The notes beneath the pieces were generated by a model. That model was not told where the DNA came from, did not search any database, and saw only the letters and a program-made list of their open reading frames with translations. DNA of 64,000 bases from Nitrospinales bacterium. Lineage in GTDB: Bacteria > Nitrospinota > Nitrospinia > Nitrospinales > VA-1. Position numbers and translations under genes: made by a program. Shown here piece by piece: positions 5,830 to 32,786 of the stretch; positions within the stretch are counted from its first letter, which is position 1; the number at the start of each line of letters is the position of its first letter. The stretch is from the NCBI GenBank assembly GCA_965262115.1, contig OZ253496.1:2304001-2368000 (forward strand), in the 5' to 3' direction.

Positions 5830-5867
5830 TACCCTTTCAGGGCACGAAAGTTTTGGTGAAATATCAC
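5830..5867 (-). repeat. 38-bp GNA-hairpin mini-element
   Basis: Reverse complement GTGATATTTCACCAAAACTTTCGTGCCCTGAAAGGGTA; absent at the homologous position of MITE 3. Confidence 0.8.
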
Positions 5868-5925
5868 GTCTTCGTCACCTTGTTCCTCAGAATGACAAAA
5901 TGGCCCAGTATTGTCATGCTGAGCA

Positions 5926-6004
5926 GTGATATTCGACCTTTGCCTTCATGCCCCGTAGGGGTATGTGATATCCTCTTCATTAAACTTCATGCCCCGTAGG
6001 GGTA
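5926..6004 (+). repeat. two tandem GNA-hairpin mini-elements (5926-5963, 5965-6004)
   Basis: GTGATAT...CTTCATGCCCCGTAGGGGTA twice. Confidence 0.85.
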
Positions 6005-6099
6005 TCTCGAAGCATCTCGATTCTTCGATTTTTTGACTTATGCAAAGGTCTCCTAGAAATGCGGGGGAAGGTTCAAATCAGACTGAAGGAGAAAACAAA

Positions 6100-6129
6100 A
6101 AAACCGCTCACTTTTCAGTGAGCGGTTTT
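6100..6129. terminator. bidirectional intrinsic terminator
   Basis: AAAACCGCTCACT-TTTC-AGTGAGCGGTTTT between convergent genes. Confidence 0.85.
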
Positions 6130-6146
6130 AATTTTGGACGAAAAAG

Positions 6147-6425
6147 CTATAGGGAGTTTTTCAATGTAGGAGCAGGTTTAAAACCAACCGTTTTACTGGC
6201 TTTAATTTTGATTTCCTCACCCGTTTGAGGATTCCGGCCTTTTCTTGCTTTTCGGTTTCGAACCGTAAAGGTTCCAAAGCTGGGGTAGGCGAACCGTTTT
6301 TCTTTTTTTACCCCTTTAGAAATAGCTTCGAAGGTGGCATCAATCACATCTCCGGCCAATCGCTTGGTCAGGCCATCGTTTTTACAACTTTTAATTACCG
6401 CATTGATTAATTCGTCTTTAGTCAA
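6147..6425 (-). CDS. hup: HU family DNA-binding protein
   Basis: MTKDELI..., FGTF, RKGRNPQTGE; TTG start with GAGGAGG RBS. Confidence 0.95.
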   Translation of the reverse strand: MTKDELINAVIKSCKNDGLTKRLAGDVIDATFEAISKGVKKEKRFAYPSFGTFTVRNRKARKGRNPQTGEEIKIKASKTVGFKPAPTLKNSL

Positions 6426-6534
6426 GGTTCATCCCCTCCTCTCAAATCATTATAAGGCTGGTGCATTATTATGAAACCCGCATCAAATGTCAAATAAAAA
6501 AACGGGATAGTATCCATTTTAGCCCTTTATTGAG

Positions 6535-6642
6535 GAGACCTTTGCATAACCCCGAGACCATCATTGATCCTCCCCTCTCATGAGGGGAGGATCAGATCAA
6601 TTCATGCCCCGCAGGGGTAATCTCGGGTTATGCAAAGGTCTC
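6535..6642. mobile_element. MITE copy 2 (108 bp)
   Basis: Perfect TIRs GAGACCTTTGCATAACCC; 9-bp direct repeat TTTATTGAG at 6526-6534 and 6643-6651; internal 13-bp hairpin 6565-6594; 3' half of the mini-element at 6601-6619. Confidence 0.9.
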
Positions 6643-6801
6643 TTTATTGAGGGGCGAATTCGACCCCCTACCTTGAGTGTGATAAAATAAGATTTGTGTT
6701 ATTAGGAGGCATGGACCCATATTTTATTCTGACCAGTAGTAAAAAAACTGGTATTTTAAATATGTATTGAGAGAAACCACACATGAACTCAGAGGTTGGA
6801 T

Positions 6802-7353
6802 ATGGCAGTGCTGAAAGTCGCTAAATTGGGCAACCCTGTTTTGAGGCAGGTCGCCAAGCAAGTGGATTTAAAAGAGTTGGCCGATCAGCAAGGCGAATTG
6901 CAGAACTTGGTAGACGATATGATCGACACCATGCGTGAGGAGGAGGGTGTCGGTCTGGCTGCTCCGCAGGTCAATCGTTCCCTGCAAATTGTGGTGCTGG
7001 AGTATGAGAGTAATGAGAGATATCCGGGAGAATCCCCCATCCCCGTGACCGCCCTGATCAATCCTGTATTGTCGGATTACAGTGAGGAAAATGCTTTGGG
7101 ATGGGAAAGTTGTTTGAGTCTCATTGATTTCAGGGTACTGGTTCGAAGATCCAAATCAGTGACGCTCAACGCTTATGATCGGGAAGGCAATAAGATAGAG
7201 AAACGGGCAACCGGTTTTGAGGCGGTGGTTTTACAACATGAAATTGACCACTTGAACGGTAAGGTATTCCTGGACCGAATGGAGGATCTCACTCAATTGG
7301 CTTATCAGGAAGAATTCGAAAAATTCTGGATTAAAAAAGATCCGGTTCTATAA
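6802..7353 (+). CDS. def: peptide deformylase
   Basis: GVGLAAPQ, ESCLS, QHEIDHLNG. Confidence 0.96.
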   Translation: MAVLKVAKLGNPVLRQVAKQVDLKELADQQGELQNLVDDMIDTMREEEGVGLAAPQVNRSLQIVVLEYESNERYPGESPIPVTALINPVLSDYSEENALGWESCLSLIDFRVLVRRSKSVTLNAYDREGNKIEKRATGFEAVVLQHEIDHLNGKVFLDRMEDLTQLAYQEEFEKFWIKKDPVL

Positions 7354-7361
7354 AAGGAGAG

Positions 7362-7712
7362 ATGGTATTGGACAACTCCTTGGAAGAAGAGATATTGCAT
7401 CTGTATCAGGAGCCGGGGATTGGTGCTTCCTACAGCAATACCTACGGTGAAGAGAATATCCAAAATCTGGTCGGCAAGTACCGCAGTCTCAAAGATGAGA
7501 GTATGCGGGAGATGCTGGAAATGCTGATCCGTTTTTCCCGGTCCAGCGATTTGGCGACCTGTTTCGTTTCGGTGGGGGTCCTGCACGCTTTGGGGAAAAA
7601 TGAAGATGTTCAAGAAGCCTACCGATGGGCCAAAACCCAGGACGACCCGGCACGGATCATCAGTCATTTCGATATTGGAAAGTCAGTTGCCGATTATTTC
7701 ACCTCGGCCTGA
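7362..7712 (+). CDS. hypothetical protein
   Basis: 116-aa ORF with AGGAG RBS directly after def; no recognised motif. Confidence 0.75.
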   Translation: MVLDNSLEEEILHLYQEPGIGASYSNTYGEENIQNLVGKYRSLKDESMREMLEMLIRFSRSSDLATCFVSVGVLHALGKNEDVQEAYRWAKTQDDPARIISHFDIGKSVADYFTSA

Positions 7713-9031
7713 ATTTTGCCATCTCCTGCTCCAGGAGTTGGGTTGAACCCGCTTGGGTCAACGGGGCATATCGAGCCGACGCATTCCCCCTGCTTTAACC
7801 TGTTACGGAGAAAGATCAGGAACCCGGACCATAAAATCCCCGGTAGGGTGACCAGCCCTGCCATCCACAAGGCAATCTGAGTGATATTCAAGCTCCATCC
7901 GTCCACGGCATAGCCCACGCCCCAATTGCTAAAGCCCATCACCAGAGTTAACAGGGCGAGTTCAAAACTGAAGACCCGGCCCAGGTAATGGTCTGGAGCG
8001 TATAGGTGGATCAAAGCCGAACTGAAAACCCAGACGATGGAGCCAAACAGGGTGGCAAGGGCCACACCGAGGGAAAGCGTCCAAAGGCTGTGGGAATAGG
8101 CGACGAATATCCATGCGCAAGCTTTCAGAAAAAATGCGCCGGCAATGGCCCATTGTAAAACCGAAGCACTTTCCCCGAAGATCCGCCTGACCAGAACGGG
8201 ACCTAAGGCGGCACCCAATCCGCGTGCGGAATAGAGAATACCGATTCCCAATGAGAGGGAACCGGACAACACCTGGCTGGCCATCAAGGGAATCAGAGTC
8301 ATGATGCCCCCTGCCACTGCCAGTCCGGCCTTTAATAATGACAACACCAGCACCATTGGTTCCGTCCATAAAAAGCGCAGAGAATCGATGAACTCCTGGT
8401 AGCCGGTTTGTTTGGGTGAATCCTTTTTCTCCGATTTTCCCTGGCTGGGAATTTTCGAAATGAACCAGGCCGAAAACAGGAAAGTGCTCGCGTCCAGGAT
8501 AAAGGCAGCTCTTATCCCGAACAAATGGACGACCACGCCACCCAAAGCGGCGCCAAAGGCCAGCATGACTGACCAGGTTGAACCGCTCAATGCGTTGGCG
8601 GTGACCAGATCTTTTTTCGGGACGAGCGAGGGAATGATTGCACTTCGGGCCGGTTCAAAAAACCCTGATAATGAAATCTCAACAATAACCAGGGCATAAA
8701 CCAGCCATAAGGCGTCCTGATCTTCCACCAGAAGAAATCCCAGCACTACCCCGCAACGCAACAGATCGCTGATAATCATCACCGTTTTTCGGTTGACACG
8801 GTCGACCACCACCCCAGCTATGGGACTGACCAGAACAATGGGCAGGAGCTTTGCCATCATCGCCACGGCCATGGCCATTCCAGAATCACTGAGTTTAAGG
8901 ATCAGTGCGTAAATGGCGATGCTGTTGAGCCAGTCTCCCAGTTCAGATACGACCTGGCCATACCACAGGTTGCGGAAGGCAGGGTTCTGGCGTAACAGGC
9001 GAAAATACCCGACTGTATTTTTGCTTTGCAT
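7694..9031 (-). CDS. MFS transporter
   Basis: About 12 hydrophobic segments, GVVVDRVNRK motif A; ATG at 9031 preferred. Confidence 0.9.
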   Translation of the reverse strand: MQSKNTVGYFRLLRQNPAFRNLWYGQVVSELGDWLNSIAIYALILKLSDSGMAMAVAMMAKLLPIVLVSPIAGVVVDRVNRKTVMIISDLLRCGVVLGFLLVEDQDALWLVYALVIVEISLSGFFEPARSAIIPSLVPKKDLVTANALSGSTWSVMLAFGAALGGVVVHLFGIRAAFILDASTFLFSAWFISKIPSQGKSEKKDSPKQTGYQEFIDSLRFLWTEPMVLVLSLLKAGLAVAGGIMTLIPLMASQVLSGSLSLGIGILYSARGLGAALGPVLVRRIFGESASVLQWAIAGAFFLKACAWIFVAYSHSLWTLSLGVALATLFGSIVWVFSSALIHLYAPDHYLGRVFSFELALLTLVMGFSNWGVGYAVDGWSLNITQIALWMAGLVTLPGILWSGFLIFLRNRLKQGECVGSICPVDPSGFNPTPGAGDGKIQAEVK

Positions 9032-9172
9032 TAAAAATTCCCGGGAAAAAACTGAAGGTGGGTGATGCGGAGCCCATACTAAAGACCCCCGCATGAATCT
9101 GCAACTGGAATTCGTTTTCGCGGTCTGGTATCTTTAAGTCACCAAAAACAGGTTTTAGCATAAAGGTGTCCC

Positions 9173-9694
9173 ATGGAAGAAGAACAACCGATATTGCAGG
9201 AAATAGATGATAAAACAGAGAAATGGACCAGAAGGGTTTCTCTGTGGGCCTCTCTATTTCTGACCACTGCTTTGGTGGTCTGGTATTACCAGGGAAATCC
9301 GCCGGATTCGCCGGAAGTGGTTAAGATGCGAATGTTTTTTAAGGAAAGAAATATAGAAGTGGGGGAGTTCATTAAAATGGACAGAAATGAGCAAATTGCA
9401 TTCGCTTATAAAAGCAAGCATCCTTTCTACAAGCGCTATATCAAGGTTTCTACTGTAGAGCAGGAAGGTATTCGTTCGCTCATCCATATATCCAGGGATT
9501 ATACGCCCAACCAGTACTGGCTCAACATCTTTTTCATGTGGGTGATGTGTTTCACCGCCTTCTGGTTTATCGGCCTGATGACCGAAGCTTGCATCGTGCT
9601 CATGCGGCGCAACTCACAAGCACGCATAAAAAACTACCAAAAGGAAAAAGAAAGAGAGCAAGGTTTAGCCCCGTCTGAAAGTGAACCCGAATAA
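9173..9694 (+). CDS. hypothetical membrane protein (2 TM)
   Basis: 173-aa ORF with two hydrophobic segments. Confidence 0.75.
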   Translation: MEEEQPILQEIDDKTEKWTRRVSLWASLFLTTALVVWYYQGNPPDSPEVVKMRMFFKERNIEVGEFIKMDRNEQIAFAYKSKHPFYKRYIKVSTVEQEGIRSLIHISRDYTPNQYWLNIFFMWVMCFTAFWFIGLMTEACIVLMRRNSQARIKNYQKEKEREQGLAPSESEPE

Positions 9695-9780
9695 ACGATT
9701 AGTAATTCGTGTGTCCTTGAAGATGTCAAATAAAAGCTGCGTTAAATCTCAAAATATCGAATTATTAGAGAGCCCAAACT

Positions 9781-10608
9781 ATGGATGCCAATCAGATTCG
9801 CTTTGCGATATTTATTTCGGTATTTTTATTGATGCTGGGGTTGGAGTCGGTCATTCAACGTCATCCTACCGTTGACTCTAAAAAACGTCGGCTAAAAATC
9901 AATTTGGCTTTAACGGGCATCGATATTCTTGTGGTGCGTATTTTTTTGGGAGCAGCGGCGATGGGGGCCGCCCAATTTGCCGGGGAAAAGGGATGGGGCC
10001 TGTTCAACTACTTGCAATGGCCGGAAGGACTGGAAACCTTGCTTGTCGTTGTAATTCTCGACCTGATGATTTATATCCAGCATGTGGTGGTGCATATGAT
10101 CCCTTTTTTCTGGCGCTTTCATGTTGTGCATCATTCTGACCTCGATTTGGACGTTTCATCCGGATTACGCTTCCACCCTATAGAGATATTGGTATCCATG
10201 TTTTATAAAATTGGTTTGGTCTTTGCTCTGGGTCCCTCGCCGATAGCGGTTTTGATTTTCGAGGCGGTTCTTAATGGAATGTCCCAGTTCTCCCATTCCA
10301 ATATCACTTTGCCGGAAAAGCTTGACCGGTTGTTAAGATATGTGATTGTCACGCCGGACATGCATCGCATTCATCATTCGGTGGAGAAAAGGGAAACCAA
10401 CTCTAATTTCGGTTTTAACCTGTCTGTCTGGGACCGAGCTTTGGGAACATATATTCATGATGCGTCAAAACCGCAACCGCGGATTATAATCGGGGTCAAT
10501 GCGTTTCGCACCGGTGAGGAAGTGTCTTTGAAAAATTTATTGATGATGCCATTTCGGGAGGTTCCCGAAAGCTACACGCTTTCCCCTGAAAAAAATAAGG
10601 ATAGGTAA
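9781..10608 (+). CDS. sterol desaturase / fatty acid hydroxylase family protein
   Basis: His boxes HVVVH, HVVHH, HSN, HRIHH; NFG motif. Confidence 0.92.
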   Translation: MDANQIRFAIFISVFLLMLGLESVIQRHPTVDSKKRRLKINLALTGIDILVVRIFLGAAAMGAAQFAGEKGWGLFNYLQWPEGLETLLVVVILDLMIYIQHVVVHMIPFFWRFHVVHHSDLDLDVSSGLRFHPIEILVSMFYKIGLVFALGPSPIAVLIFEAVLNGMSQFSHSNITLPEKLDRLLRYVIVTPDMHRIHHSVEKRETNSNFGFNLSVWDRALGTYIHDASKPQPRIIIGVNAFRTGEEVSLKNLLMMPFREVPESYTLSPEKNKDR

Positions 10609-10775
10609 TGGCTATCAGACTGACAAAAATCATTGCGACATTGGGCCCCGCCAGTGGCAATAAAACGGTTATCCGGAATCTGGTGAAAAAGGGGGACCGT
10701 GTGGTGATCACCACGGGAATTCCGGTCAACGTTCCCAACTGGACTAATGTGATCCGGGTGGAAGAGGTTCCCTGA
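10608..10775 (+). pseudogene. pyk: pyruvate kinase remnant with in-frame internal deletion (55 aa)
   Basis: MAIRLTKIIATLGPAS (PK N-terminus) joined to LVKKGDRVVITTGIP...TNVIRV (PK C-terminus); ATG overlaps the upstream TAA. Confidence 0.85.
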
Positions 10776-10827
10776 ATGGGGTAAGCAACCAACTTTCATT
10801 TTTAACTTTTTCCTGATAAGATTCGGT

Positions 10828-11037
10828 ATGTCTCCCCGATATTATATAGGCACTGCAATTCTGGTTGGGGTTCTCACGCTGGCGATCAGTTGGTGGAAGC
10901 AAAAACAGACCCGCCGTGAAATTTTTTGGGTTATGATTAAAGTTGTTTTTGCTTTGGCTGTAATTGTTGGGGGAGTTCTGGGTGTGGCTCAGCTCCTTGT
11001 TTTTTTTGGCGTGGCCCAATCCGGATTTTTTTTATGA
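10828..11037 (+). CDS. small membrane protein
   Basis: 69 aa, two hydrophobic helices; ATGA overlap with the next ORF. Confidence 0.7.
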   Translation: MSPRYYIGTAILVGVLTLAISWWKQKQTRREIFWVMIKVVFALAVIVGGVLGVAQLLVFFGVAQSGFFL

Positions 11038-11264
11038 GCCCTCAACCTTCAGACTTCTCAGGATTCATGGTCGTTTTCCTGAGCTTTTCCTTTTTGGCCA
11101 TCTCTTATTTTATGGGTATGTTGGTTCATTCTGCCCTGATGTATGAAGACAAAAGAAATATTGGAAAAGACAGCCGCAGTGGTTGGGTGTTGAGCATGGT
11201 CGCCGGAACCGGCATAACAGGGTGGATGTTCTATTATGGGTACTATGTGAATTTTTTAAGATAA
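11034..11264 (+). CDS. small membrane protein
   Basis: 76 aa, two hydrophobic helices, translationally coupled. Confidence 0.7.
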   Translation: MSPQPSDFSGFMVVFLSFSFLAISYFMGMLVHSALMYEDKRNIGKDSRSGWVLSMVAGTGITGWMFYYGYYVNFLR

Positions 11265-11273
11265 AGGCTATTT

Positions 11274-11624
11274 TTAAAGAGACAGCATGTCGACCAGTCT
11301 CCGGCAATCATTTTTATATCCCAGGATTTCCTCGTTTTCCTCATCGCTCAAATCGTCCGTCAGGTTCTCCTCAATCAACTCAATCGCATCATTCAGTCCG
11401 CCAGCAACGATGTCGAGTTCGTTTTCGTTCAGCGCATACATTGACCCGCTTTGCCTGAGCTTATCAAACACCCGCGAATATCTGGCTTTGTAATTTTCGA
11501 GTCCGTTCTTTTTTTCAGGAGATAACTCCTGCTTGAGTTCGGTATTAATGTCCGATATCGAATCATTCAATGCCATTTTAATGGTCTCAATATCTTTGTC
11601 TGTGACGGATGCGAGTGACTTCAT
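11274..11624 (-). CDS. hypothetical protein with internal duplication
   Basis: 116 aa; two similar halves (LNDSI...LS.E...YK / LNDAI...LS.E...YK). Confidence 0.8.
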   Translation of the reverse strand: MKSLASVTDKDIETIKMALNDSISDINTELKQELSPEKKNGLENYKARYSRVFDKLRQSGSMYALNENELDIVAGGLNDAIELIEENLTDDLSDEENEEILGYKNDCRRLVDMLSL

Positions 11625-11665
11625 GCTTTCCTGTATTCAAAATGAAGGTTGCTGATTGGGTCGAT

Positions 11666-11795
11666 ATTTTATTCGAATTTTGACCAACTCCATTTTATTC
11701 GAATTTTGACCAACTCCATTTTATTCGAATTTTGACCAACTCCATTTTATTCGAATTTTGACCAACTCCATTTTATTCGAATTTTGACCAACTCC
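11666..11795. repeat. tandem repeat, 5 x 26 bp
   Basis: ATTTTATTCGAATTTTGACCAACTCC five times, perfect, no spacers. Confidence 0.97.
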
Positions 11796-11953
11796 GGAGT
11801 TATTGATATTTTACCATAAGTTTACCCGGGTCGCATGAAAAATTAAAGAACAAGGCCGGTTTATCGATTCCCCGGCTCCAAAAATAATGGGCCGACTTAT
11901 AGCGGGGCTGTGCCCCGTACAAGTCGGCGAGTGATTTTCTTCTTTTTAAAGAC

Positions 11954-12382
11954 TCAAGATTCGACCTTGATCTCTATTTTTTTCGGTTTTGCCTGCTCCT
12001 TTTTGGGCAGAGTTACCTTCAGGACTCCCTGCTCCATTTGGGCGATGACTTTTTCCGGGTCAATCTGGTCGCTGAGCCTGAAGCTCCTGGCAAAACTTTG
12101 TTTGCTGAATTCGTGAATGCGATAATCGTCTTTATCGGTTTGCGAATTTTGCTCCCGATGGCCCTTGAGGGTCAAAACGCCGTCATGAAATTCAACGGAA
12201 ACGTCTTTTTCTGTCATGCCTGGGGTTTCCGCTTCCAGATGAAACGCTTCGTCTTTTTCAATCACATTGATCTTGGGCAGAACTGTCGGTTGATCCCATT
12301 TAGCTCTGGGGAACCCGAAAAACCGGTCGGTATCAAAAAATCGGTCTAAAGCCTGCTCTGGGTTAAAAGTTACGAGATTCAT
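11954..12382 (-). CDS. Hsp20 / alpha-crystallin small heat shock protein
   Basis: GVLTLKG, FARSFRL, GVLKVTLPK, C-terminal IEI motif. Confidence 0.95.
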   Translation of the reverse strand: MNLVTFNPEQALDRFFDTDRFFGFPRAKWDQPTVLPKINVIEKDEAFHLEAETPGMTEKDVSVEFHDGVLTLKGHREQNSQTDKDDYRIHEFSKQSFARSFRLSDQIDPEKVIAQMEQGVLKVTLPKKEQAKPKKIEIKVES

Positions 12383-12593
12383 GATGTTCTCCTTCTAAAT
12401 AAAGTTGATGATGTGATTATCATGTCTCTCGGCCGAGAAGGTATTGCCTGTTCTGTACTATGAATAAAATGGGAGATGGCGGTTGTCAAGCTGTCTAGGG
12501 AAAATAAACTCCGCTAAAAAGTGCTATAATTTGTTGGATAAATCCAAGGTGGTCCGCAGGTTCATTAAACTCTAAGGGGAGATGGAGGTTTAT

Positions 12594-12954
12594 ATGGATT
12601 ATACGGTTTGTGTGGTTGAGGATGAAAGGGCTTCCCGGACGATGATCATTGAAATGTTGAAAAAGACGGGAATCAGTAAAATAGTCGCGTCAACAAATGG
12701 TCAGATTGCCCTGGAAAAACTCAAGTCTCAAAAAGCCGATTTGATTATCTCAGACTGTGATGGATGGGCTGGAATTTTTTAAGGCTGTGAAGAAGGAAGA
12801 GGCATATGAAGACACGCCCTTCTTGATGGTGACTGTGGAAGATTCAAAAGAAAAAGTGGTTGAAGCATTGACGATAGGGATCCGCGATTACATTGTCAAA
12901 CCCTTGTCCAAGAATAGCTTTGAGAGTAAGGTAAAACCCCTGTTGAAATTCTAG
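12594..12954 (+). pseudogene. CheY-like response regulator, frameshifted
   Basis: VVEDE...LIISD in one frame; VMDGLEF...YIVKP in another; break at about 12756. Confidence 0.85.
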
Positions 12955-12995
12955 AACACCCTCCATTTGTACCGAAATCAGGCATAAAGCTAAAA

Positions 12996-13022
12996 CACCC
13001 TTCGATGGTCCATCGAAGGGTG
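12996..13022. terminator. perfect 13-bp inverted repeat, possible terminator
   Basis: CACCCTTCGATGG-T-CCATCGAAGGGTG between convergent ORFs. Confidence 0.55.
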
Positions 13023-13081
13023 AGTGTTTGTTTTCGATTCACTCTCTACTCGCGGTAAATTTGTCCTTCAGTACCAAACGC

Positions 13082-13183
13082 TCATTTCCCGAACAGGGAA
13101 AGTCCTAAGGAGAGGGCGGTATAAATCACGCAGAAGACGCAGGCGAAAAACGGTTTCTTATAAAGGTCGGAGAATTTTTTCAT
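13082..13183 (-). CDS. putative 33-aa single-TM small protein, probably leaderless
   Basis: MKKFSDLYKKPFFACVFCVIYTALSLGLSLFGK; TTGCAG-17-TATAAT ends 6 nt before the ATG. Confidence 0.5.
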   Translation of the reverse strand: MKKFSDLYKKPFFACVFCVIYTALSLGLSLFGK

Positions 13184-13321
13184 GCCCTTATTATAGGCCT
13201 TCGGGCCGATTCCTGCAATGTTCTATCCGTTAAAGCCGAAAGCCCGTGTTTAAACAGGGTGTTCTAAAGAGCCCCTTTGTGGAATGAATGCCTGTTCTGT
13301 TTTTCGGACCGTTGGGTTTTT

Positions 13322-13846
13322 TCAGTGGTTGGCGGTGCCGAAGGCTATCCGGTCCATCAGAGCGAAAAGCACACCGCTCAATACAAAGGCCATATGGATC
13401 ACGACTTTCCACAAGAACATTTCTGTGTTGGCCTCGGTCGGTTCGTCAGAGATCTCCATAAAAGTTTTCAGAAGGTGGATGGTAGAAATTGCGACAATGG
13501 CACCGATGACCTTTAACTTGAGTCCGCTAAAATCAACTTTCCCCATCCAGTCGGGCCGGTCAGAATGGTCTCCCACATCTATTTTGGAGACGAAAATTTC
13601 ATGGCCGGAGAAGATGATCATGAGCAATAAAGACCCGATCAGGGTGATGTCTATCAGGGCCAGAACGCCAATGATCACTTCGCTCTAGGGGGTGGTGAAA
13701 ACGTGAGAGGTCAGATGAATCAGTTCCTGTGAAAATTTTATAAAAAGCAGGGCTATGCTGATGACCAGTCCAGGAAAAAAAGGAGCCAGCAACCACCTGC
13801 TGTTGAAAATAAATTTTTCTAAAAATTGTTCGGTTTTATTGGACAT
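13322..13846 (-). pseudogene. UPF0114 (YqhA/TIGR00645-like) membrane protein with an in-frame TAG
   Basis: SRWLLAP N-terminus; TAG at 13685-13687; same frame continues SEVIIGVLALID...FVSKID...LKLKV...AISTIHLLK. Confidence 0.85.
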
Positions 13847-13969
13847 TGTTTTTCCGGATTTAAATGGAGGAATGCTAGTTCTCAGGGCTTGGGAAAAAGG
13901 ACTGTCCGGAAATCGGGCCGGTGACCTCTTGAGTTTTGAGAATATTAACTCCAATAGGTCTAGACGATC

Positions 13970-14555: not shown

Positions 14556-14580
14556 CTGTTAAAGTATAGTGACAATCAAT
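14545..14580. promoter_or_regulatory. OxyR-type binding site
   Basis: ATAG-N7-CTGT-N6-ATAG-N7-CAAT between the divergent oxyR remnant and the peroxidase. Confidence 0.55.
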
Positions 14581-14681
14581 TAGACTAATCAAGGCAAATA
14601 ACCAATACTTGAGAAAACAGAATGGGGATCAACCTGTTAGTAATTTTAATTGAATAAAATTTATACCTTGAGGTAATCGCA

Positions 14682-21786: not shown

Positions 21787-21954
21787 GAGAGCTTTGCATA
21801 ACCCAAGATTCTTCGTTGCAATAGCTCCTCAGAATGACAAAATATCCTTTTATTGTCATGCTGAGCTAGTGATATTTAACCATTGCTTTCTTGCCCCGGA
21901 GGGGTATGTCGAAGCATCTCGCTTTTCTGCTTTATAGACTTACGCAAAGGTCTC
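21787..21954. mobile_element. MITE copy 3 (168 bp)
   Basis: TIRs GAGAGCTTTGCATAA / TTACGCAAAGGTCTC; 9-bp direct repeat CCTCTAACA at 21778-21786 and 21955-21963; contains a mini-element at 21869-21906. Confidence 0.9.
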
Positions 21955-22014: not shown

Positions 22015-22074
22015 TTGCAAGCCGTCAAAGTTTATCGCTCATTGTACCCCCTTCTACCCCTTGTATGTTGTTCA

Positions 22075-22285
22075 TAAGGGGAATTTGTAGTAGTTGTACC
22101 TGTGAGCCCTGTGGGAAGCCGGTTTTGTGTTTTCCACAAGCTCCCAGGATTTGATTCAGGGCACAATAGATCGTTTACCCCTTGGGCTTTTAAGCCCGTC
22201 CCGAAGCGCAGATCGTTGTGTCCTATTTTGATTAACCCGAACAGTTGCCTGGGCCACTGAGCCCGCATCGGCAAGGCTGGGAGAC
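22075..22285 (+). ncRNA. bridge RNA of the IS110 element (ends approximate)
   Basis: 5' stem-loop 22099-22148; target loop TTTACCCCT (22174-22182) and CCCGAAG (22200-22206); donor loop ACAGTTGC (22241-22248) and CAAG (22272-22275). Confidence 0.88.
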
Positions 22286-22291
22286 CAAATT

Positions 22292-23242
22292 ATGAATCAG
22301 AAACCCCATTTTATTGGCATCGATATTTCTAAACTCCATCTGGATGTTGCTGACAGCATGACTCAAGAAACCTGGCAAACCGCTAACAATGAGGAAGGGA
22401 TTGCTGGTTTGGTCGAGAGTTTATCCGCCTTAAATCCTCCATTGATCGTTTTGGAAGCCACAGGCGGCTTAGAGATCCCGTTGGCTTCGGCCCTGGTTGC
22501 GGGTCGACTGCCAGTAGCCGTGGTCAACCCACGGCAAGTTCGTGATTTTGCCAAAGCCACCGGGAAACTGGCAAAAACCGATGTCATTGATTCTCTTGTG
22601 CTGGCCCATTTTGCCAAGGCCATACGTCCTGAGGTCAGGAAAATCAAAGACGAAGAATCTCTGGAACTCTCAGCTCTAGTGACACGCCGTCGCCAGTTGA
22701 TCGAGATGCTGACCAAAGAAAAAACCCGTCTAAAACAAGCTCCAAAATGGATATGTAAAGACATTAAGGAGCATATCGAATCTCTTAAAAAACGCTTGCG
22801 AAAAATCGATGGCGACCTTTCCAGAACCATCAAAAACAGTTCTGCCTGGCGTGAGCACGACCAGATCATACAAAGTGTTCCCGGTGCCGGTCCCGTTCTG
22901 GCTGTCAACCTCTTGGCCGGGGTTCCGGAACTTGGAGTTCTTAATCAGAAGCAAATCGCCGCCCTCATCGGTCTCGCTCCCCTCAATCGGGACAGCGGAA
23001 AGTTCCGGGGCCGCCGGTGTATCTGGGGCGGCCGCGCCAATGTGCGTGCCGCTTTATACATGGCCGCCGTCACTGCCATGCAGCATAATCCCGTGATTCG
23101 TACCTTTTACACACGCCTCATCGAAAAGGGCAAACCCTTTAAAGTTGCCATTACCGCATGCATGAGAAAGTTATTAACGATCATCAATACCATGATCAAA
23201 ACAAAAACACTCTGGAATGAAAATCTCATTGCCAGCACTTGA
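22292..23242 (+). CDS. IS110 family transposase / bridge recombinase
   Basis: DEDD RuvC-like motifs IGIDISK, LEATG, KTDVID; C-terminal GLAP...DSGK catalytic Ser; intact 316 aa. Confidence 0.96.
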   Translation: MNQKPHFIGIDISKLHLDVADSMTQETWQTANNEEGIAGLVESLSALNPPLIVLEATGGLEIPLASALVAGRLPVAVVNPRQVRDFAKATGKLAKTDVIDSLVLAHFAKAIRPEVRKIKDEESLELSALVTRRRQLIEMLTKEKTRLKQAPKWICKDIKEHIESLKKRLRKIDGDLSRTIKNSSAWREHDQIIQSVPGAGPVLAVNLLAGVPELGVLNQKQIAALIGLAPLNRDSGKFRGRRCIWGGRANVRAALYMAAVTAMQHNPVIRTFYTRLIEKGKPFKVAITACMRKLLTIINTMIKTKTLWNENLIAST

Positions 23243-23259
23243 CATTTAACACAGTTGCT

Positions 23260-23335
23260 TCGGGGCATGAAGCCAATGAAGAGGGCATAACAGGGGCATG
23301 AAATTTACTGAGTAGATAAGCTCCACGCCTAGTGG
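23260..23335 (-). repeat. right part of the IS-interrupted inverted repeat (left part 22039-22061)
   Basis: Reverse complement of 24585-24664 with small indels; includes the glgC stop codon. Confidence 0.9.
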
Positions 23336-24573: not shown

Positions 24574-24584
24574 AAGGGTCTCTT

Positions 24585-24687
24585 CCACTCGGTGTGGAGC
24601 TGTGATATCTACTCAGTAAATTTCATGCCCCTGTTATGCCCTCTTCATTGGCTTTCATGCCCCGAAGGGGTAGAAGGGGTACAATGA
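24585..24687 (+). repeat. intact ~103-bp repeat with a self-nested mini-element and an empty IS110 target
   Basis: Outer unit 24602-24681 interrupted by inner unit 24633-24672; CCCGAAGGGGTAGA at 24661-24674 is the reverse complement of the 14-nt target. Confidence 0.9.
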
Positions 24688-24810
24688 ACAATCACTCTTG
24701 CTGGTGGGCAACGATGCTCTTGGTCCAACAAGCCATTGCCCCATTTTCCCGGGCGTGGCCTGGGCTGGTTTCGATGATATTGCTAAAATTCTGGACTGTC
24801 AACCGGGCAC

Positions 24811-24846
24811 AAAAAAACCGGCCCCCCTGTAAAAAGGAGCCGGTTT
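24811..24846 (-). terminator. groEL intrinsic terminator
   Basis: AAACCGGC...GCCGGTTT stem followed by a T tract on the minus strand. Confidence 0.75.
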
Positions 24847-24874
24847 AATTTTTGCGTACAATCGAAAGGGGGAA

Positions 24875-26548
<1,674 letters not shown>

Positions 26549-26604
26549 TTAAGAGATGTGAATAATTTTGTCGTTATTTGTCGATAAATGATTGAGATGG
26601 AAAC

Positions 26605-26892
26605 TTAACCTACGATCGCAAGAACATCGTCCTCACGCATCAACAGGAAATCTTCTCCGTCAAATTTTATTTCTGTGCCGCCGTATTTGCTGTAAAGGAC
26701 TTTGTCCCCGACTTTCACCTGCAATTTGACTGGCTTGCCATCATCACCTACTTTACCTTTACCTACAGCTTTGACGCGGCCTTCGATTGGCTTCTCCTTG
26801 GCCGAATCGGGAATGATGATCCCGCTTTTTCGGACTTCTTTTTCCAGAATAGGTTGAACCAGAATACGGTCGTGCAATGGTTGGATTTTCAT
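26605..26892 (-). CDS. groS: co-chaperonin GroES
   Basis: PLHDRILV, GIIIPDSAKEKP. Confidence 0.98.
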   Translation of the reverse strand: MKIQPLHDRILVQPILEKEVRKSGIIIPDSAKEKPIEGRVKAVGKGKVGDDGKPVKLQVKVGDKVLYSKYGGTEIKFDGEDFLLMREDDVLAIVG

Positions 26893-27039
26893 ATAGACTC
26901 CTTGAAAAAATGTTAAACTCTGATTAAATGTTGAAAAAAAGCCAGTGTTTCCTGAATCTGCCCGAAAAAATTATTAACATATTGAAATTAAGTGCCTTAT
27001 GCCCCAGAGCGGGAGAAGTTCGGCTCGGAATTTGAATTG

Positions 27040-27066
27040 TCAGCACTCTCTAGGTATTAGTGCTGA
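27040..27066 (-). promoter_or_regulatory. CIRCE-like (HrcA) operator
   Basis: TCAGCACTA-N9-GAGTGCTGA on the minus strand, directly after a TATAGT -10 box upstream of groES. Confidence 0.85.
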
Positions 27067-27135
27067 CACTATATAAAATCCTTATATTAAAAAGCAAGGT
27101 ATTCCCTAAGAAAAAGTGAAAAAACTGCCAATATT

Positions 27136-27540
27136 ATGAAAAATACCAATAAAAAAGAGGTTTTACAGATTGAAACGTTCCCGAATCCGTTTCCGGGAAG
27201 GGATTATGTCATTGAAATGGAATGTCCGGAGTTCACCTGTTTGTGTCCCAAAACCGGGCAGCCGGACTTTGCCACCCTGCATATCAGTTATGTTGCGGAT
27301 AAATTGTGTCTGGAGTTAAAATCGTTGAAGATCTATCTGGTGTCGTATCGCAATGAAGGCGGGTTTCACGAAAAGGTGACCAATATCATTTTGGATGATC
27401 TGGTGTCGGCGTGTCGGCCGCGAAAAATGAAAATTATCGCCGATTTTAATGTGCGCGGGGGAATCCACACCAGCGTTACGGTGGAACACCTGGCTAAAAA
27501 ATCAGCTGCTCGCCGTAGGGGCAGTGGTATTCTTCCTTAA
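27136..27540 (+). CDS. queF: NADPH-dependent preQ0 reductase QueF (short type)
   Basis: [28 protein letters not shown]. Confidence 0.96.
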
Positions 27541-27806
27541 AGATCGTGCCCCGAATGAGGAGTCATAACATGTTGCCGACTGGCAATAGCCCGTTAAGTG
27601 ACCTAACATTCTTGCGCGCAAGTCCTCATCGTTCCTCGATTACTGAATAGCAACTATTTATATTTTCAGAGAGGGATAACACCCTGTGTAGTAAAATACC
27701 CTAAAATGGACCCAGAATCTGATTTTCAGGAAAGCAATTGTAAAATGGTGTTTTATTTTTTGTTCTAGAGAGGCTGTTTTAAGGAGCTCGAACAATCTCT
27801 GCTATA

Positions 27807-28286
27807 ATGTCGCATTTGGATGGAATTATGGGACAACGATTTGTTGAAAATGGCAACAGGACGATAAAAGACGTTCGCACGGGCCTGGTTTGGCAGGAGG
27901 GCTATGCTTATATTGAAACGGGAAATAATATTAGCTGGTATGATGCCCAGGACTATATCAGTAAGCTAAATCGGGAAAAACTGGGGGGCTATGAAGATTG
28001 GCGCCTGCCGGATCGGCTTGAAATTCAAAGCCTTTATGAAATCGCCAAACCCTTCCAGTCACGTGGAAAAACATTCATTCTTCATATTGATCCGATTTTT
28101 GAATTCAGTTACGGCAGTTGTTTTTGGACCAGCAAGACCCGGCTTTCTGCGGCGCTTGGCTTCGAATTTGATATGGGAGACATTCACTGGTATCCCAAAG
28201 GGAGCCATAAGGGAACTGTTCGGGCTGTACGAAATGATTGGCAACCCCGATTAATGATTGACCCGGGCTGGGCTGAAAAATTCTAA
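27807..28286 (+). CDS. DUF1566 (Lcl C-terminal) domain protein
   Basis: D..TGLVWQ, GGYEDWRLP, FWTS, VRAVR. Confidence 0.85.
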   Translation: MSHLDGIMGQRFVENGNRTIKDVRTGLVWQEGYAYIETGNNISWYDAQDYISKLNREKLGGYEDWRLPDRLEIQSLYEIAKPFQSRGKTFILHIDPIFEFSYGSCFWTSKTRLSAALGFEFDMGDIHWYPKGSHKGTVRAVRNDWQPRLMIDPGWAEKF

Positions 28287-28303
28287 GGCTGTTAATAAAG
28301 CAT

Positions 28304-28585
28304 ATGGACGAGCAACAATTCAAAGTCGAAAAATCCAAGGCGCGAAAACTCCGCCAGTCACAGTGGTGGAAAGAAAAAATCCAGGCTGGCGTTTGCCATT
28401 ATTGCGGAGGCCGGTTCACGGCGGAAGAGTTAACGATGGATCATATTGTCCCCATTTCGCGCGGTGGAAAAAGTAAGCGTGGGAATCTGGTGCCCTCATG
28501 TAAAAAATGCAATGGGAATAAAAAGTACTACACCCCGGCAGAGATCATCCTTCGTGAAAAGCTAGGTCAGGACATTCAATTTTAA
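28304..28585 (+). CDS. small HNH endonuclease
   Basis: CHYC...DHIVPISRGG....NLVPSCKKCN. Confidence 0.92.
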   Translation: MDEQQFKVEKSKARKLRQSQWWKEKIQAGVCHYCGGRFTAEELTMDHIVPISRGGKSKRGNLVPSCKKCNGNKKYYTPAEIILREKLGQDIQF

Positions 28586-28658
28586 AGAATGGGTGGTGGA
28601 TACCTGAAACACCGCCTCAAAAACTTCTTCCCATAAATTTCAAGGTTTAAATTAATTC

Positions 28659-30161
28659 ATGCAGATTCTTTTGGATGTGGATTGCCTGATTCAGGCATCG
28701 AAAAATATTGCGAATTCGGCGGTGTTAAGCCTGTGCCGTCAGAAGCATTGCCAGGGCTGGGTAGCGTCCACTTCCATTCCTGCCATTTGGCAGGAGGCGG
28801 GAGCACGAAATGTTCAATCAATTTTGCGGGACTTGGCTGTTTTGACTCCCACGGCTCATGATATTGACCTGGCCCTCGGTTCTAAAAAACCCTTTATGCA
28901 AGCCTTGCTGACACGTCTGGTAGAGGCCAGCGGGTTGGACGCGGTGGTCACGCTTGCCCCTGAAAAATTTTCCGGCTTGACAGTAGAAGCCCTGACTCCC
29001 GGACAGTTGCAGGAAAAATTGGATGCTCCGCCAGAGCCGGTTGAGGAAGTTCGTTTACTGGATATCACCGCCTCGTATCACCAGATATTAAATGAAGTGG
29101 AAAAGGAGATGGCGGAAACGATTCGATCGGGACATTTCATCCTTGGCCCTAAAGTATCCCGGCTGGAAGAGAGGATGGCAGATTATTGCCAGACCAGATA
29201 TGCCGTTGGAGTTTCATCCGGGACCGATGCATTACTGATTGCGCTGATGGCTTTGGGGGTTGGCCCGGGTGATGAAGTGATCACCTCCCCCTACACATTT
29301 TTTGCAACGGCGGGTTCTATCATTCGCGCCGGGGCTAAACCAGTTTTTGTGGACATCAATGACATTACTTTCAATATCAAACCGGAACACATTGAGCGAT
29401 GCATCACCCCGAAAACTAAAGCCATTATCCCGGTGCACCTTTATGGGCAATGTACGGATATGGACCCTGTTCTTCAGCTGGCCGGGAAAAGGGGTCTAGC
29501 GGTGATTGAAGATGCTGCGCAGGCGATTGGTTCTGAGTACAAGGGCAGACCGGCCGGTTCGATAGGGGACATGGGGTGCTTCTCGTTTTTCCCCGCAAAA
29601 AATCTTGGGGGTTTTGGCGATGGTGGGCTGGTGACCACTAACTCGAAAGAACTTTACAAACAGTTAAAGATTATCAGAGTGCATGGTTCGGACCCGAAAT
29701 ATTATCATAAAGTGATGGGGGGAAACTTTCGTCTCGATGCTCTGCAGGCTGATGTTGTGAGTGCCAAGCTGAACTTCCTGCAGGACTGGACCGAGAAAAG
29801 GAGGGAAAACGCGCAAACTTATAATCAGCTATTTAAAGATTCTGCATTGACCCCGTTTGTCCAACTGCCTCCTGAAGTGTTTTCCCGTCATGTTTACAAC
29901 CAGTATGTCATTCGCGCGGGAAGCCGCAGGGATGAACTCAGAACTTTTTTGAATGAAAAGCGGATCGGGTGTGAAATTTATTACCCCATCCCGCTTCATC
30001 TTCAAGACTGTTTCAAATCTTTAGGCTATAAAAGTGGTGATTTCCCGGAATCCGAAAAAGCCGCAAGGGAGACCTTGGCGCTTCCCATATCTCATGAAGT
30101 CGATCGAGCTCAGCAGGAATATGTTGTTCAAATGATCCGCCGGTTTTTTCTGGGGGAGTGA
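28659..30161 (+). CDS. DegT/DnrJ/EryC1/StrS aminotransferase with an N-terminal PIN-like extension
   Basis: SSGTDAL, PVHLYGQ, EDAAQA, SFFPAKNLGGFGDGG; about 125 extra N-terminal aa starting ILLDVD. Confidence 0.88.
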   Translation: MQILLDVDCLIQASKNIANSAVLSLCRQKHCQGWVASTSIPAIWQEAGARNVQSILRDLAVLTPTAHDIDLALGSKKPFMQALLTRLVEASGLDAVVTLAPEKFSGLTVEALTPGQLQEKLDAPPEPVEEVRLLDITASYHQILNEVEKEMAETIRSGHFILGPKVSRLEERMADYCQTRYAVGVSSGTDALLIALMALGVGPGDEVITSPYTFFATAGSIIRAGAKPVFVDINDITFNIKPEHIERCITPKTKAIIPVHLYGQCTDMDPVLQLAGKRGLAVIEDAAQAIGSEYKGRPAGSIGDMGCFSFFPAKNLGGFGDGGLVTTNSKELYKQLKIIRVHGSDPKYYHKVMGGNFRLDALQADVVSAKLNFLQDWTEKRRENAQTYNQLFKDSALTPFVQLPPEVFSRHVYNQYVIRAGSRRDELRTFLNEKRIGCEIYYPIPLHLQDCFKSLGYKSGDFPESEKAARETLALPISHEVDRAQQEYVVQMIRRFFLGE

Positions 30162-30174
30162 GTCCGAACCTGGG

Positions 30175-30753
30175 TCAAAACAGGGGTGGTTTTTCTTCCA
30201 CAATAATTTTTTCGCGGGGTGTGTGAACCTGAATTTCGCAAACCATAGTGATATGAAAGCCTAATTTTGTTTTGAGGGGTTCTTCAAGCTTGAATTTCTC
30301 CGATTTCATGATGCAATCGATCAATTCCTGATTCATGGTATGTGGGGCTATTTCCATTCCCTGGTAAATCCAGCCTAACGACCCTCCCAACTTTTTACTC
30401 ATGCAAGCGCTGTATTTTTTGGCGAGACGGGTGAAAAATTTCTCCATTTTTTCCCAGTCATGAAAAGGCTTGTCGGGATCGTCCATTTCCTGTTGCGCCA
30501 GTTCATTCTGATAATCTACAAGTGTTTCCCAGATCATTTTTGCAGACTCGATGGAGGTCATGCGGATGGTTCTCACCCGGTGTTCCATGGGCTTGTCAGT
30601 GGTGAAAGTTTTCTTAGTCGGGACAAAAGTTTTTTTAATTTTTGGTTTGGGCTTGATAGGGGCTTTAGGGGTATCCGCGACAGGCTGGGGTTCCTTGGCG
30701 GTTTTATCCCGTTCGAATATGGTCTTTTCAGGTTCTTGGGGTTGCTCAGCCAT
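30175..30753 (-). CDS. PpiC/parvulin-like peptidyl-prolyl isomerase domain protein
   Basis: F..LAKKYSAC.SKKLGGSLGW, KTKLGFHI. Confidence 0.75.
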   Translation of the reverse strand: MAEQPQEPEKTIFERDKTAKEPQPVADTPKAPIKPKPKIKKTFVPTKKTFTTDKPMEHRVRTIRMTSIESAKMIWETLVDYQNELAQQEMDDPDKPFHDWEKMEKFFTRLAKKYSACMSKKLGGSLGWIYQGMEIAPHTMNQELIDCIMKSEKFKLEEPLKTKLGFHITMVCEIQVHTPREKIIVEEKPPLF

Positions 30754-30822
30754 AATAATTCTTTTGAAAGGTTATTTAATAGGGTGATGGTTATTTTTAA
30801 TAGCAGTGTAATTTGAATGGGC

Positions 30823-31665
30823 TCATTTTTCAAGCCATATAGACTCCAGATATTGCAGGACAGCTCCTTGGGCATTGCTTCCGATGATCTCGTTAGCGGA
30901 TTCCTTGACTTCCGGCAGGGCATTTTCCATAGCAATGGCCCGGCCGACGATGCGAAACATGTCAAGATCGTTCAAATAATCTCCGAATACAACGAGGCGT
31001 TCCAGCGGAACCCCCAGTTTTTGAGCAAGAACCTCTACCATATTTCCTTTACTGGCCTCCTGGTGAAAGGACTGCAGCCAGTAATAGCCTTTCATGGATA
31101 CGTCTTCGGCAAAATATAAATTGAGGAGGTCAAAATGTTTTTCTTTAAGTGATTGGTAAACGTGTTCGAGCCGATCATGCGTGTCGATCAACAAAAACCC
31201 GGAAACTTTTTCCTCCTCTTGAAAATCAAAACAGTTAACTCGGCAAAGTCTTGCGTCACTTTCAAGGCTTTTTACATAGGCTTGGGAGCCGGTATTGGTG
31301 GCATTCAGATAATAAAGTTGGTGTTTTTCTCCAAGTGTATAGATGAAGGGATCAATGCCCAGAGGCAAGGCCAGCTCAAGCATGCTTTGAACGACTTTTT
31401 TTTCAATGGAGCTGGAATGTTCCAAAATGCGGCCGGTATTGAAATCGGCCATGTAAACGCCATTGAATAAAATGACCGGCAGGATCAGGTTCAATCCCTT
31501 CAAAATCGGATGCACGGAATCGTAGTTTCGAGCGGTGGCGATGGTGAAACGCATTCCCATGTCGATCAGACGGTTGAGGCGCTTCTTGTAATCATCGGGG
31601 AATGAACTATCGGGCCGTAACAGGGTGCCGTCCAGATCGGAAATATATAAAAGCTCTTTATCCAT
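30823..31665 (-). CDS. Cof-type HAD hydrolase
   Basis: DLDGTLL, ATAR, SKG, FGDYLNDLDM. Confidence 0.92.
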   Translation of the reverse strand: MDKELLYISDLDGTLLRPDSSFPDDYKKRLNRLIDMGMRFTIATARNYDSVHPILKGLNLILPVILFNGVYMADFNTGRILEHSSSIEKKVVQSMLELALPLGIDPFIYTLGEKHQLYYLNATNTGSQAYVKSLESDARLCRVNCFDFQEEEKVSGFLLIDTHDRLEHVYQSLKEKHFDLLNLYFAEDVSMKGYYWLQSFHQEASKGNMVEVLAQKLGVPLERLVVFGDYLNDLDMFRIVGRAIAMENALPEVKESANEIIGSNAQGAVLQYLESIWLEK

Positions 31666-31873
31666 AATGGGGTTTGAATGAATGGAATTCTCGCAGGCCT
31701 GTTTGTAAGGAATCGCTTCAGGAGTATACTAAAATAAAATTATTAAATGAACAATCCTGCTGCCAACGGACAGGATATCCTGAATAAAGTGTTATTTTAA
31801 AAAATGTGGCAAGCCAAGGAGAATAAAACCCACTTGTGGGATTTAATTATTTTGCGAAAAAGGATTGGGGTTC

Positions 31874-32656
31874 ATGAGAGATAAAAATTTTGCCCGGCAC
31901 TTGCGGTCTTCAGTTTTGGGAATATTTCTTGTTTTTGGTTTTTGTTCCAATAGTGAAGCTTTTGATTTTTCTGACTGGGATGTGCTGATCAAAAAACATG
32001 TAACTCTTAAAACGTTGGAGGGTGTTCCGCTCAACGCGGTCGATTATGCCAACCTGAAAAAAGACCCTCTTTTTTCGGGTCTGATTTCCAGACTCGAGCC
32101 GTACTCTCTAAAGAGTTTGAAATCGGATAAATCCAAATTGACCTTCTGGATCAACGTTTATAATATTTTGGCGGCAAAAATGATCACCGACCACTATCCC
32201 ATAGAGAGTATCAAGGATGTGGGAGGTATATTTCAATCTGTCTGGAAGCGCCCGGCAGGCAAGGTGGGAGGCAAAGAGTGCACTCTCAACGACATTGAGC
32301 ACGAAATCCTCAGGAAGATGGATGACCCCCGTATTCATGTGGCTATCGTCTGTGCTTCTGTTAGTTGTCCGGACCTTCGCCTGGAAGCCTATACGGTGGA
32401 AAAGCTGAATGACCAGTTGGACGACCAGATGAAAATGTTTTTGCGATCCCGAGAAAAAGGAATGAAACTGGACGAAAAGAAAAACCGGGTTTATCTCTCA
32501 TCCATATTCAAATGGTTTGCGGAGGACTTTGAAAGCCGTGGAGGAGTTTTAAAGTATATCGGTCAGTATGTTCCGGCAGAAGAAAAAAAGTTTTTGAATG
32601 ATTCCCAAATAAAAATTTCTTACCTGGACTACAACTGGAAGATCAATGGTCGCTAG
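31874..32656 (+). CDS. DUF547 domain exported protein
   Basis: Signal peptide; FWINVYN, DPRIHVAIVCASVSCPDL, YNWKIN. Confidence 0.9.
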   Translation: MRDKNFARHLRSSVLGIFLVFGFCSNSEAFDFSDWDVLIKKHVTLKTLEGVPLNAVDYANLKKDPLFSGLISRLEPYSLKSLKSDKSKLTFWINVYNILAAKMITDHYPIESIKDVGGIFQSVWKRPAGKVGGKECTLNDIEHEILRKMDDPRIHVAIVCASVSCPDLRLEAYTVEKLNDQLDDQMKMFLRSREKGMKLDEKKNRVYLSSIFKWFAEDFESRGGVLKYIGQYVPAEEKKFLNDSQIKISYLDYNWKINGR

Positions 32657-32748
32657 GCGTAAGGCCAGTGGGCAATAGCGTTAGACGGGTGATAGGAGTT
32701 ATCTCGGCTTGATATACCGATTGCCCCCCTGCCAGGGGGCGTGAGGCT

Positions 32749-32786
32749 GTGAACTTCATCATCATCCTTCATGCCCTGGAGGGGTA
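32749..32786 (+). repeat. 38-bp GNA-hairpin mini-element
   Basis: GTGAACTTCATCATCATCCTTCATGCCCTGGAGGGGTA, in the same GCT|CAATG context as the copy at 24602. Confidence 0.75.

Follow-up and report, generated by a model that had tools for sequence, protein, structure and literature searches.

A mobile hairpin unit of about 40 nucleotides in Nitrospinales whose first base is matched to the foot of its hairpin

A very short non-coding repeat of 39-41 nt occurs at several places in the 64,000-nucleotide stretch of Nitrospinales bacterium DNA analysed here (contig OZ253496.1 of assembly GCA_965262115.1, positions 2,304,001 to 2,368,000; hereafter the window). Our analysis shows that this unit is a real, mobile element and that it represents a family apparently undescribed so far. 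The unit, inserted at hundreds of places in these marine, nitrite-oxidising bacteria, has exact ends, duplicates no target bases and has entered orthologous sites step by step; its first base can pair with one at the hairpin foot, its targets favour the motif G-N-R-B-N, and some of them show a CC-to-AG change once filled. The conserved pairing of the first base suggests that the unit likely travels as a tiny DNA circle. A literature search, with most subscription journals outside its reach and supplements excluded, found no description of the repeat. Rfam at its gathering score matched nothing in the window except a tRNA, and the unit is a member of no Rfam family.

The consensus reads N-GTGATRT...TTC-N'-TG-CCCS-GNA-SGGG-TA, where N is the first base and N' the base at the hairpin foot. 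The genome of the window, G000 (2.68 Mb, 93.9% complete; the other genomes compared are metagenome-assembled), contains the hairpin motif 343 times, where two Markov-shuffled versions yielded 0 and 2 matches; a stricter pattern recovers 282 full units. Triloops of the GNA type, which are stable in DNA, cap 347 of 376 hairpins, where the initial annotation of this DNA had described the loop as always GNA. The loop-closing pair switches from C-G to G-C with the triloop preserved. The middle, previously described as freely variable and AT-rich, is in fact pyrimidine-rich, G-poor and partly conserved, with C at position 13 in 92% of 228 39-mers. Copies are almost wholly intergenic. Of 120 Nitrospinota genomes scanned with a covariance model, as the initial annotation had proposed, 49 carry the unit, including all 22 others of the same genus, and the pattern of a head-to-tail junction occurs at 58 loci in the GTDB collection, all labelled Nitrospina, Nitrospinaceae, Nitrospinales, Nitrospinae or Nitrospinota. 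A divergent variant is present in another family (loci L243, L246, L253, L258, L260, L265 and L267; genomes G055 and G067), with an altered 5' motif and a first base C still opposite G.

Every copy listed earlier for the window was found in its place, together with the compensatory stem change of the 5830 copy, the T-G wobble of the 32749 copy, the nested pair and the inverted pair interrupted by an insertion sequence (IS) of the IS110 family. The features are given below, with the first base and the foot base written as a pair and a slash at the insertion point; MITE stands for miniature inverted-repeat transposable element.

5806-6052, no strand assigned: IS5-derived MITE with a 9-bp target duplication, carrying the units at 5830, 5925 and 5964 as passengers
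5830-5868, minus: full 39-nt unit, first base C pairing with G at the hairpin foot, at GAAGA/ATCT of a CGTC/SRM-type repeat
5925-5963, plus: full 39-nt unit, first base A and foot A (the unpaired minority)
5964-6004, plus: full 41-nt unit (T:A), joined head to tail to the 5925-5963 copy at its GGGTA end
6601-6619, plus: 3' half (hairpin) of a unit within a second MITE, the 5' part replaced by another repeat
21809-21810, minus: empty target site of the GAAGA/ATCT type, an uninserted AGAT/TCTTCG
21868-21906, plus: full 39-nt unit (A:T), at GAGCT/TGTCG
22045-23319, minus: nested pair split by IS110 (outer 5' part 23293-23319, 4 bases short; inner 5' part 23260-23292; 3' parts 22045-22061); the orthologous site is empty in G013
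22062-23259, plus: insertion sequence of the IS110 family (IS621-type) with a CT core, interrupting the inner unit at its hairpin
22140-22290, plus: predicted bridge RNA region, with guides at 22174-22182 (left target), 22200-22206 (right target) and 22241-22248 (left donor)
22292-23242, plus: gene of the IS110 DEDD recombinase, 316 aa
24601-24681, plus: outer unit (T:A), at GGAGC/CAATG; the site is empty in G013 and singly filled in G019
24632-24672, plus: inner 41-nt unit (T:A), set into the outer unit 9 nt before its 3' end, at the 5' edge of the loop
32748-32786, plus: full 39-nt unit (T:A), at GAGGC/CAATG, between a DUF547 gene and ftsZ

The uninserted AGAT/TCTTCG, on which the annotation had relied, is indeed present between 21809 and 21810. 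The context GCT/CAATG that two copies were said to share is not: the sites read GGAGC/CAATG and GAGGC/CAATG.

Alignment of filled with empty sites, likewise proposed earlier, fixed the ends of the unit. At empty sites within G000 the base before GTGAT is absent too and no base is duplicated; this base therefore belongs to the unit. The true 5' start lies one base before that given in the annotation, for a length of 39-41 nt. Stepwise insertion is seen in the spacer between glgC and groEL, which is empty in G013, holds one unit in G019, and in G000 holds a second unit nested in the first. When G000 was compared with G013, of which 2.09 of 2.86 Mb was covered, 20 distinct pairs of filled and empty orthologous sites emerged (one poorly matched), with no extra bases in any; 57 copies were shared, and 515 of 593 sites lacked an anchor or bore a different repeat. 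Insertion without target duplication thus holds both within G000 and between orthologues, and the independent mobility that had been suspected is supported, as is insertion into other repeats and into the unit itself.

In all, 189 target clusters were distinguished. By a rough motif classification, 226 of 249 full G000 copies lie in or adjoin another repeat. For nested insertions (31 cases) there are three fixed entry points, which lie 9, 20 and 30 nt from the 3' end of the outer unit. The presumed preference for other hairpins is instead one for the short motif G-N-R-B-N within repeats, and no fixed position relative to a target hairpin emerged. Monomers, head-to-tail tandems and nests were seen, and no inverted dimers acting as a mobile unit. 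Terminal inverted repeats and target duplication, the marks of a classical DDE-derived MITE, are absent from the unit and present in its host MITE. Near-identical nested doublets (22045-23319 and 24601-24681) flank glgC in inverted orientation, with a common GGAGC upstream that differs from both orthologues; this arrangement probably reflects local conversion, or a hop of the doublet with a 4-base loss.

Could the unit be only a segment of larger repeats, never mobile by itself or no longer so? Some copies are passengers, since three window copies ride in an IS5-type MITE (5806-6052) that is absent from 5/5 orthologous loci. G000 contains 72 such MITEs, 42 of them with 9-bp duplications, and these carry repeats of the SRM type; G013 has an IS5 that looks intact and shares their ends (L345:1841-2806). 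The commonest host repeats resemble the SRM/CGTC class and flank small GIY-YIG genes, and dense arrays of units in G007 and G013 sit in SRM repeats, next to genes of the housekeeping, IS5 and GIY-YIG kinds. Passive carriage in IS5 MITEs and CGTC/SRM arrays contributes some of the copies. As an account of origin, carriage is very improbable and largely refuted by the 189 target clusters, by copies in phage contigs, by insertion into an IS3 and by exact orthologous empty sites; the last of these also speak against the possibility, foreseen in the annotation, that the unit is nothing but a fixed part of one larger repeat. In a family of near-identical IS3 elements, each of the 15 orfA ends carries the unit; this family was not found in G013, G019 or G007, and six related IS3 copies are empty at the insertion point. 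Because this family is uniformly filled, is missing from the relatives' genomes and has empty relatives, recent activity of the unit is likely.

At G000:C1:411120-412410 and in about 16 further IS3 copies, the unit lies between a slippery A-run and orfB and stops the -1 frame before orfB. These unit-bearing copies are 99.5-99.9% identical despite the broken -1 frame, and about half of them hold an IS110 inside the unit. The phage contigs that carry the unit (G120, with 6 copies in 50 kb, G121 and G122) are a possible route between hosts. Genes for 95-aa GIY-YIG proteins lie within long CGTC/SRM-type arrays (L017, L018 and L021; G019, G013 and G007), an arrangement described for Ssn nucleases.

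The two ends of the unit are related. Among 448 distinct sequences, 384 have a first base N that forms a Watson-Crick match with N' of TTC-N'-TG, at a distance of 23-25 nt (T:A 222, C:G 136, A:T 22, G:C 4). The agreement recurs in each set of sequences, with 162/184 records in G000, 55/64 in other genomes and 117/141 among metagenome contigs. Among distinct G000 sequences, 150 of 171 are paired where 80 are expected, the maximum in 5000 permutations being 101; these figures overstate significance because the sequences are related and not independent. In the 228 39-mers, N:N' is the strongest covariation, exceeding that of the stem pair, and both sides have changed in 25 of 53 aligned rows. The G:C, A:T and T:A forms all occur at one target, GAGCT/TGTCG. 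Between units with near-identical middles, N' differs in 64% of pairs if N differs and in 22% if it does not, and 5 of 372 identical middles bear two different Watson-Crick types. In mixed tandems, N pairs with the N' of its own unit in 113/124 cases and with that of the next unit in 37/66; it is therefore monomers that move. When the last A is joined to N, the hairpin is extended by N:N' and one invariant G:C pair, and circular folding closes N:N' in 130 of 171 sequences. Divergent copies of another family have lost the second pair and retained C:G.

On this basis we propose, with slightly more confidence than doubt, that the 39-41-nt unit likely moves as a small single-stranded DNA circle whose ends are aligned by N:N', through a strand-transfer enzyme presumed to be HUH (Y1)-like. 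The GNA-capped hairpin would fold on exposed single-stranded DNA, and N would pair with N' and stack on the terminal A. The enzyme would then cut both ends and join A to N, and later reopen the A-N bond and join it into a new site. The exact ends, the lack of duplication, a 5-nt motif, the triloop and the foot pair are features that fit single-strand transfer of the IS608/REP kind. A bolder version is more tentative, and we hold it to be possible but rather doubtful: the unit would represent a new class of mobile DNA of minimal size, in which a single-stranded circle of 40 nt defines its junction by one programmable pair and is served by an enzyme that is unrelated to known transposases and can rewrite two target bases.

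Targets are defined loosely. Before the cut, 88 of 161 target clusters have the motif G-N-R-B-N, which fits 10% of flanking positions, and A at target position -2 occurs in 2%. GGGTA, the end of the unit itself, fits this motif, which accounts for the tandem and nested copies. The target itself may change: CC at positions -4/-3 often reads AG once the site is filled, and does so in two unrelated target repeats. Among doublets filled at the loop, AG is found in 18 of 34 exact cases, all in genus g1 (18/23) and in 0/11 outside it, with no intermediates that carry only one of the two changes; unfilled copies of the same loop target have AG in 0/556, and none has it in 70 genomes. In the second repeat AG occurs in 10/12 filled against 0/104 empty copies. 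Of the orthologous pairs, 4/5 with CC are edited and 0/15 others. Position -1, between the edit and the insert, retains the base of the target, and a third CC-bearing target family is unedited. A literature search for such a two-base target change returned nothing relevant. AG may be written by the enzyme or brought in by short-homology conversion from native GAGC sites. At the nest point 20 nt from the outer 3' end in G000, filled sites read CGTAGC and empty ones CTTAGC or CTTAAA (0 of 21-79 matching empties had CGTAGC), possibly a second edit or selection of rare G variants.

The edit is also what homing-like spread would leave behind. A nuclease would nick the empty repeat, and the gap would be repaired from a filled copy by short homology with co-conversion of the flanks; AG would come from native sites such as TCGTG-AG-CG/GA. 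The edit counts just given would suit this scheme, as would the existence of native sites ending in GAGC and the GGAGC that the two glgC doublets share, unlike their orthologues. We nevertheless regard it as unlikely. Position -1 keeps the base of the target and distal flanks change by no more than about 8%; none of the 11 doublets outside g1 is edited; near-identical units stand in unrelated targets, including an IS3; and the N:N' pair is left unexplained. Moreover, SsnA cuts upstream of its repeat rather than at the points concerned here (PMC11893778).

Enzymes of several families were sought. The Y1 domain PF01797 has no match in G000, exceeds the cut-off in 2/5 genomes, and occurs in 15 of 61 genomes, several of which have few copies of the unit or none; its presence does not track the unit. 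Sixteen of 17 Y1 loci examined have no nearby copy and one has a pair 0.9 kb away. A custom Y1 profile run on all six-frame open reading frames (ORFs) of G000 gave a best E of 0.55, NF047646 exceeded the cut-off in 1/5 genomes, and HUH motif scans yielded no candidate tracking the unit. Y2 enzymes of the IS91/Helitron type were found in 1/5 genomes and in none of G000, G013, G007 and G006, TopIB and Rep_trans in 0/5 each, and relaxase PF03432 over the cut-off in 1/23. Two tyrosine recombinases of G013 were read as XerC/XerD and set aside. Ssn-like GIY-YIG proteins, present in 40 of 120 genomes, do not follow the unit either, as this query did not find them in G006, G077 or G031. Among 316 representative neighbour ORFs, 139 lacked a G000 homologue; Pfam searches of 130 of these produced no mobile enzyme, PHROGs searches of 38/115 ORFs from two phage records no candidate, and plasmid blastn no match. 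Neither a TnpA parent nor a long version of the unit with an ORF, as envisaged by the annotation, was seen. None of the enzyme families listed follows the unit; the searches did not go through the G000 proteome one family after another, and an enzyme of unrecognised or unlisted type is possible.

A dedicated gene would be dispensable if host enzymes did the work. N:N' next to the hairpin end resembles a nicked 5'-flap junction that a flap nuclease and ligase, or Cas1, might circularise and reverse, by flap and disintegration chemistry of known kinds. Cas1 occurs in 3/5 genomes, namely G000, G013 and G007, the near-complete genomes with the most copies, and the length of the unit is near that of a spacer. 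We consider this improbable. Cas1 was not found in G006 or G077, both of which carry the unit, and thus does not follow it; the cas1 genes of G000 lie in ordinary-looking CRISPR-cas clusters; and Cas1 integration normally duplicates its target. A duplex of 1-2 pairs is too short for a free flap substrate, and host enzymes offer no reason for restriction to Nitrospinales. An RNA copy, moved by reverse transcriptase or by RNA recombination, reportedly proposed for the cyanobacterial SDR repeats, is a route to which we give hardly any credence: reverse transcriptase matches occur in 3/5 genomes, but G007 and G019 have none and the only one in G000 is broken; apart from the tRNA, the window has no Rfam match; and the conserved triloop suits DNA.

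The three cas1 clusters of G000:C1 (765600-769600, 2120000-2128200 and 2643300-2647200) appear by eye to be of types I-F, I-C and II, and in two of them the cas3-like and cas9-like genes are apparently in pieces. The region G000:C1:1-55000 consists of low-complexity tandem repeats and broken reverse transcriptase fragments, with no strict-threshold hairpin match before 106 kb, and this part of the contig may be DNA other than bacterial chromosome.

Several observations weigh against transfer of a single-stranded circle by a Y1-like enzyme. The HUH partner (Y1 or RAYT) expected by the annotation was not recognised in G000, G013 or G007, nor was any candidate with an HUH motif, though the IS3 insertion looks recent. 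No circle was seen in the material examined, which was contigs alone. The N:N' match fails in 64 of 448 sequences, chiefly as C with A (43), and is supported by just one further pair, itself invariant. Unlike a true guide, N' and the middle, the variable positions to which covariation applies, predict no target base (the best of 1040 tests reached z 3.1, the control 7.4), and the CC-to-AG edit is unexplained by cut-and-paste strand transfer. The middle was rejected as a target guide on the same grounds. A carried leader was considered too: near-identical units at unrelated targets show only a slight excess of shared flanks (0.38 against 0.30), one test being confounded by an abundant target and another having collapsed into one cluster.

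The proposal that the unit is the landing pad of IS110 was supported, as all 23 full-length IS110 copies are inserted in its hairpin. The hairpin arm stands on the right in 23/23 and directly on the left in 22, the last having it behind a partial duplicate. The element at 22062-23259 has DEDD and Tnp_20 domains, and its left end folds into two loops (z -2.5) whose predicted guides match target and donor, as described for IS621 (PMC11208160). A second G000 subfamily has one guide base and one target base changed together, and in the relatives from G052, G056, G050 and G047 the guides match other repeats. We conclude that this IS110 is a hyperparasite of the IS621 type and that its predicted bridge RNA directs it to the hairpin. 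It was found in 9/120 genomes, but not in G007 or G019 despite their many units, and so is not the mobiliser. With IS621 and ISPpu10 it has in common the CT core, guide loops matching target and donor, and exclusive insertion in a multicopy hairpin repeat (PMC11208160; bioRxiv 10.64898/2026.03.19.712850); it differs in that its target is this mini-element and its close Nitrospinota relatives are re-aimed at other repeats. Throughout an IS621-type clade in Nitrospinota (L307, L309-L313 and L316; G052, G027, G056, G050, G047 and G041), the predicted target guides have been redirected to different intergenic repeats, and the donor guide hardly varies.

Among known systems, the closest behavioural match appears to be with the cyanobacterial repeats SDR1-8. 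These, reportedly described by Elhai et al. in 2008, are said to be very small and precise, to nest in other repeats and to have no known enzyme; our unit, likewise tiny, precise and nesting, would fit this description. It would differ in belonging to another phylum, in being longer and in being almost wholly intergenic; the SDRs are cited in PMC4390886.

The unit shares with REP/REPIN-RAYT systems the hundreds of short, strand-asymmetric intergenic hairpin copies, a small perfect stem with a 3-nt loop (as in group 3 REPs), a hairpin-foot base paired with a base at the cut, and the targeting of repeats by IS110 (PMC8266576, PMC3733652). Unlike REPs, its foot is C-N'-T-G with variable N' and without a GTAG or CGTC tag (PMC8266576, PMC3733652), and it moves as a monomer with an unpaired 24-nt part and not as an inverted dimer; the variable foot base is tracked by the first base of the unit, and no RAYT gene was found in the high-copy genomes. 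CGTC-type repeats are stated to lack a dedicated transposase (PMC3733652). Guide pairing at the hairpin foot selects the cleavage sites in IS608 and REP systems (PMC8266576). With the peel-and-paste elements IS200/IS605 and their non-autonomous derivatives, called PATEs, the unit shares exact ends, no target duplication, a 5-nt motif 5' of both cuts and, in the model, a single-stranded circular intermediate, for which the junction pairing is indirect support (PMC8266576); it differs in having one hairpin instead of two, a length of 40 nt, a degenerate target that none of its variable positions predicts and target bases that can be rewritten, and no TnpA or long parent was found. Its commonest host repeats resemble the SRMs of Ssn GIY-YIG nucleases (PMC11893778) and flank small GIY-YIG genes. 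Such repeats house the unit and are distinct from it, and the distribution of the Ssn-like gene among genomes differs from that of the unit. The unit thus works like REP-RAYT and IS200/IS605 derivatives, yet we do not file it under them, because some of the membership features tested fail.

In conclusion, the family offers a defined 40-nt substrate whose ends are exact, along with a target motif, a junction pair that can be tested and a two-base scar that is diagnostic, and its enzyme can therefore be sought by pull-down or with a reporter. An insertion enzyme that leaves no scar, or that edits its target, and needs so short a substrate would be an interesting tool. The locus itself displays a layered chain of parasites, from MITE and SRM repeat to mini-element and IS110, and the IS110 relatives provide a natural set of predicted bridge RNAs re-aimed at different repeats.

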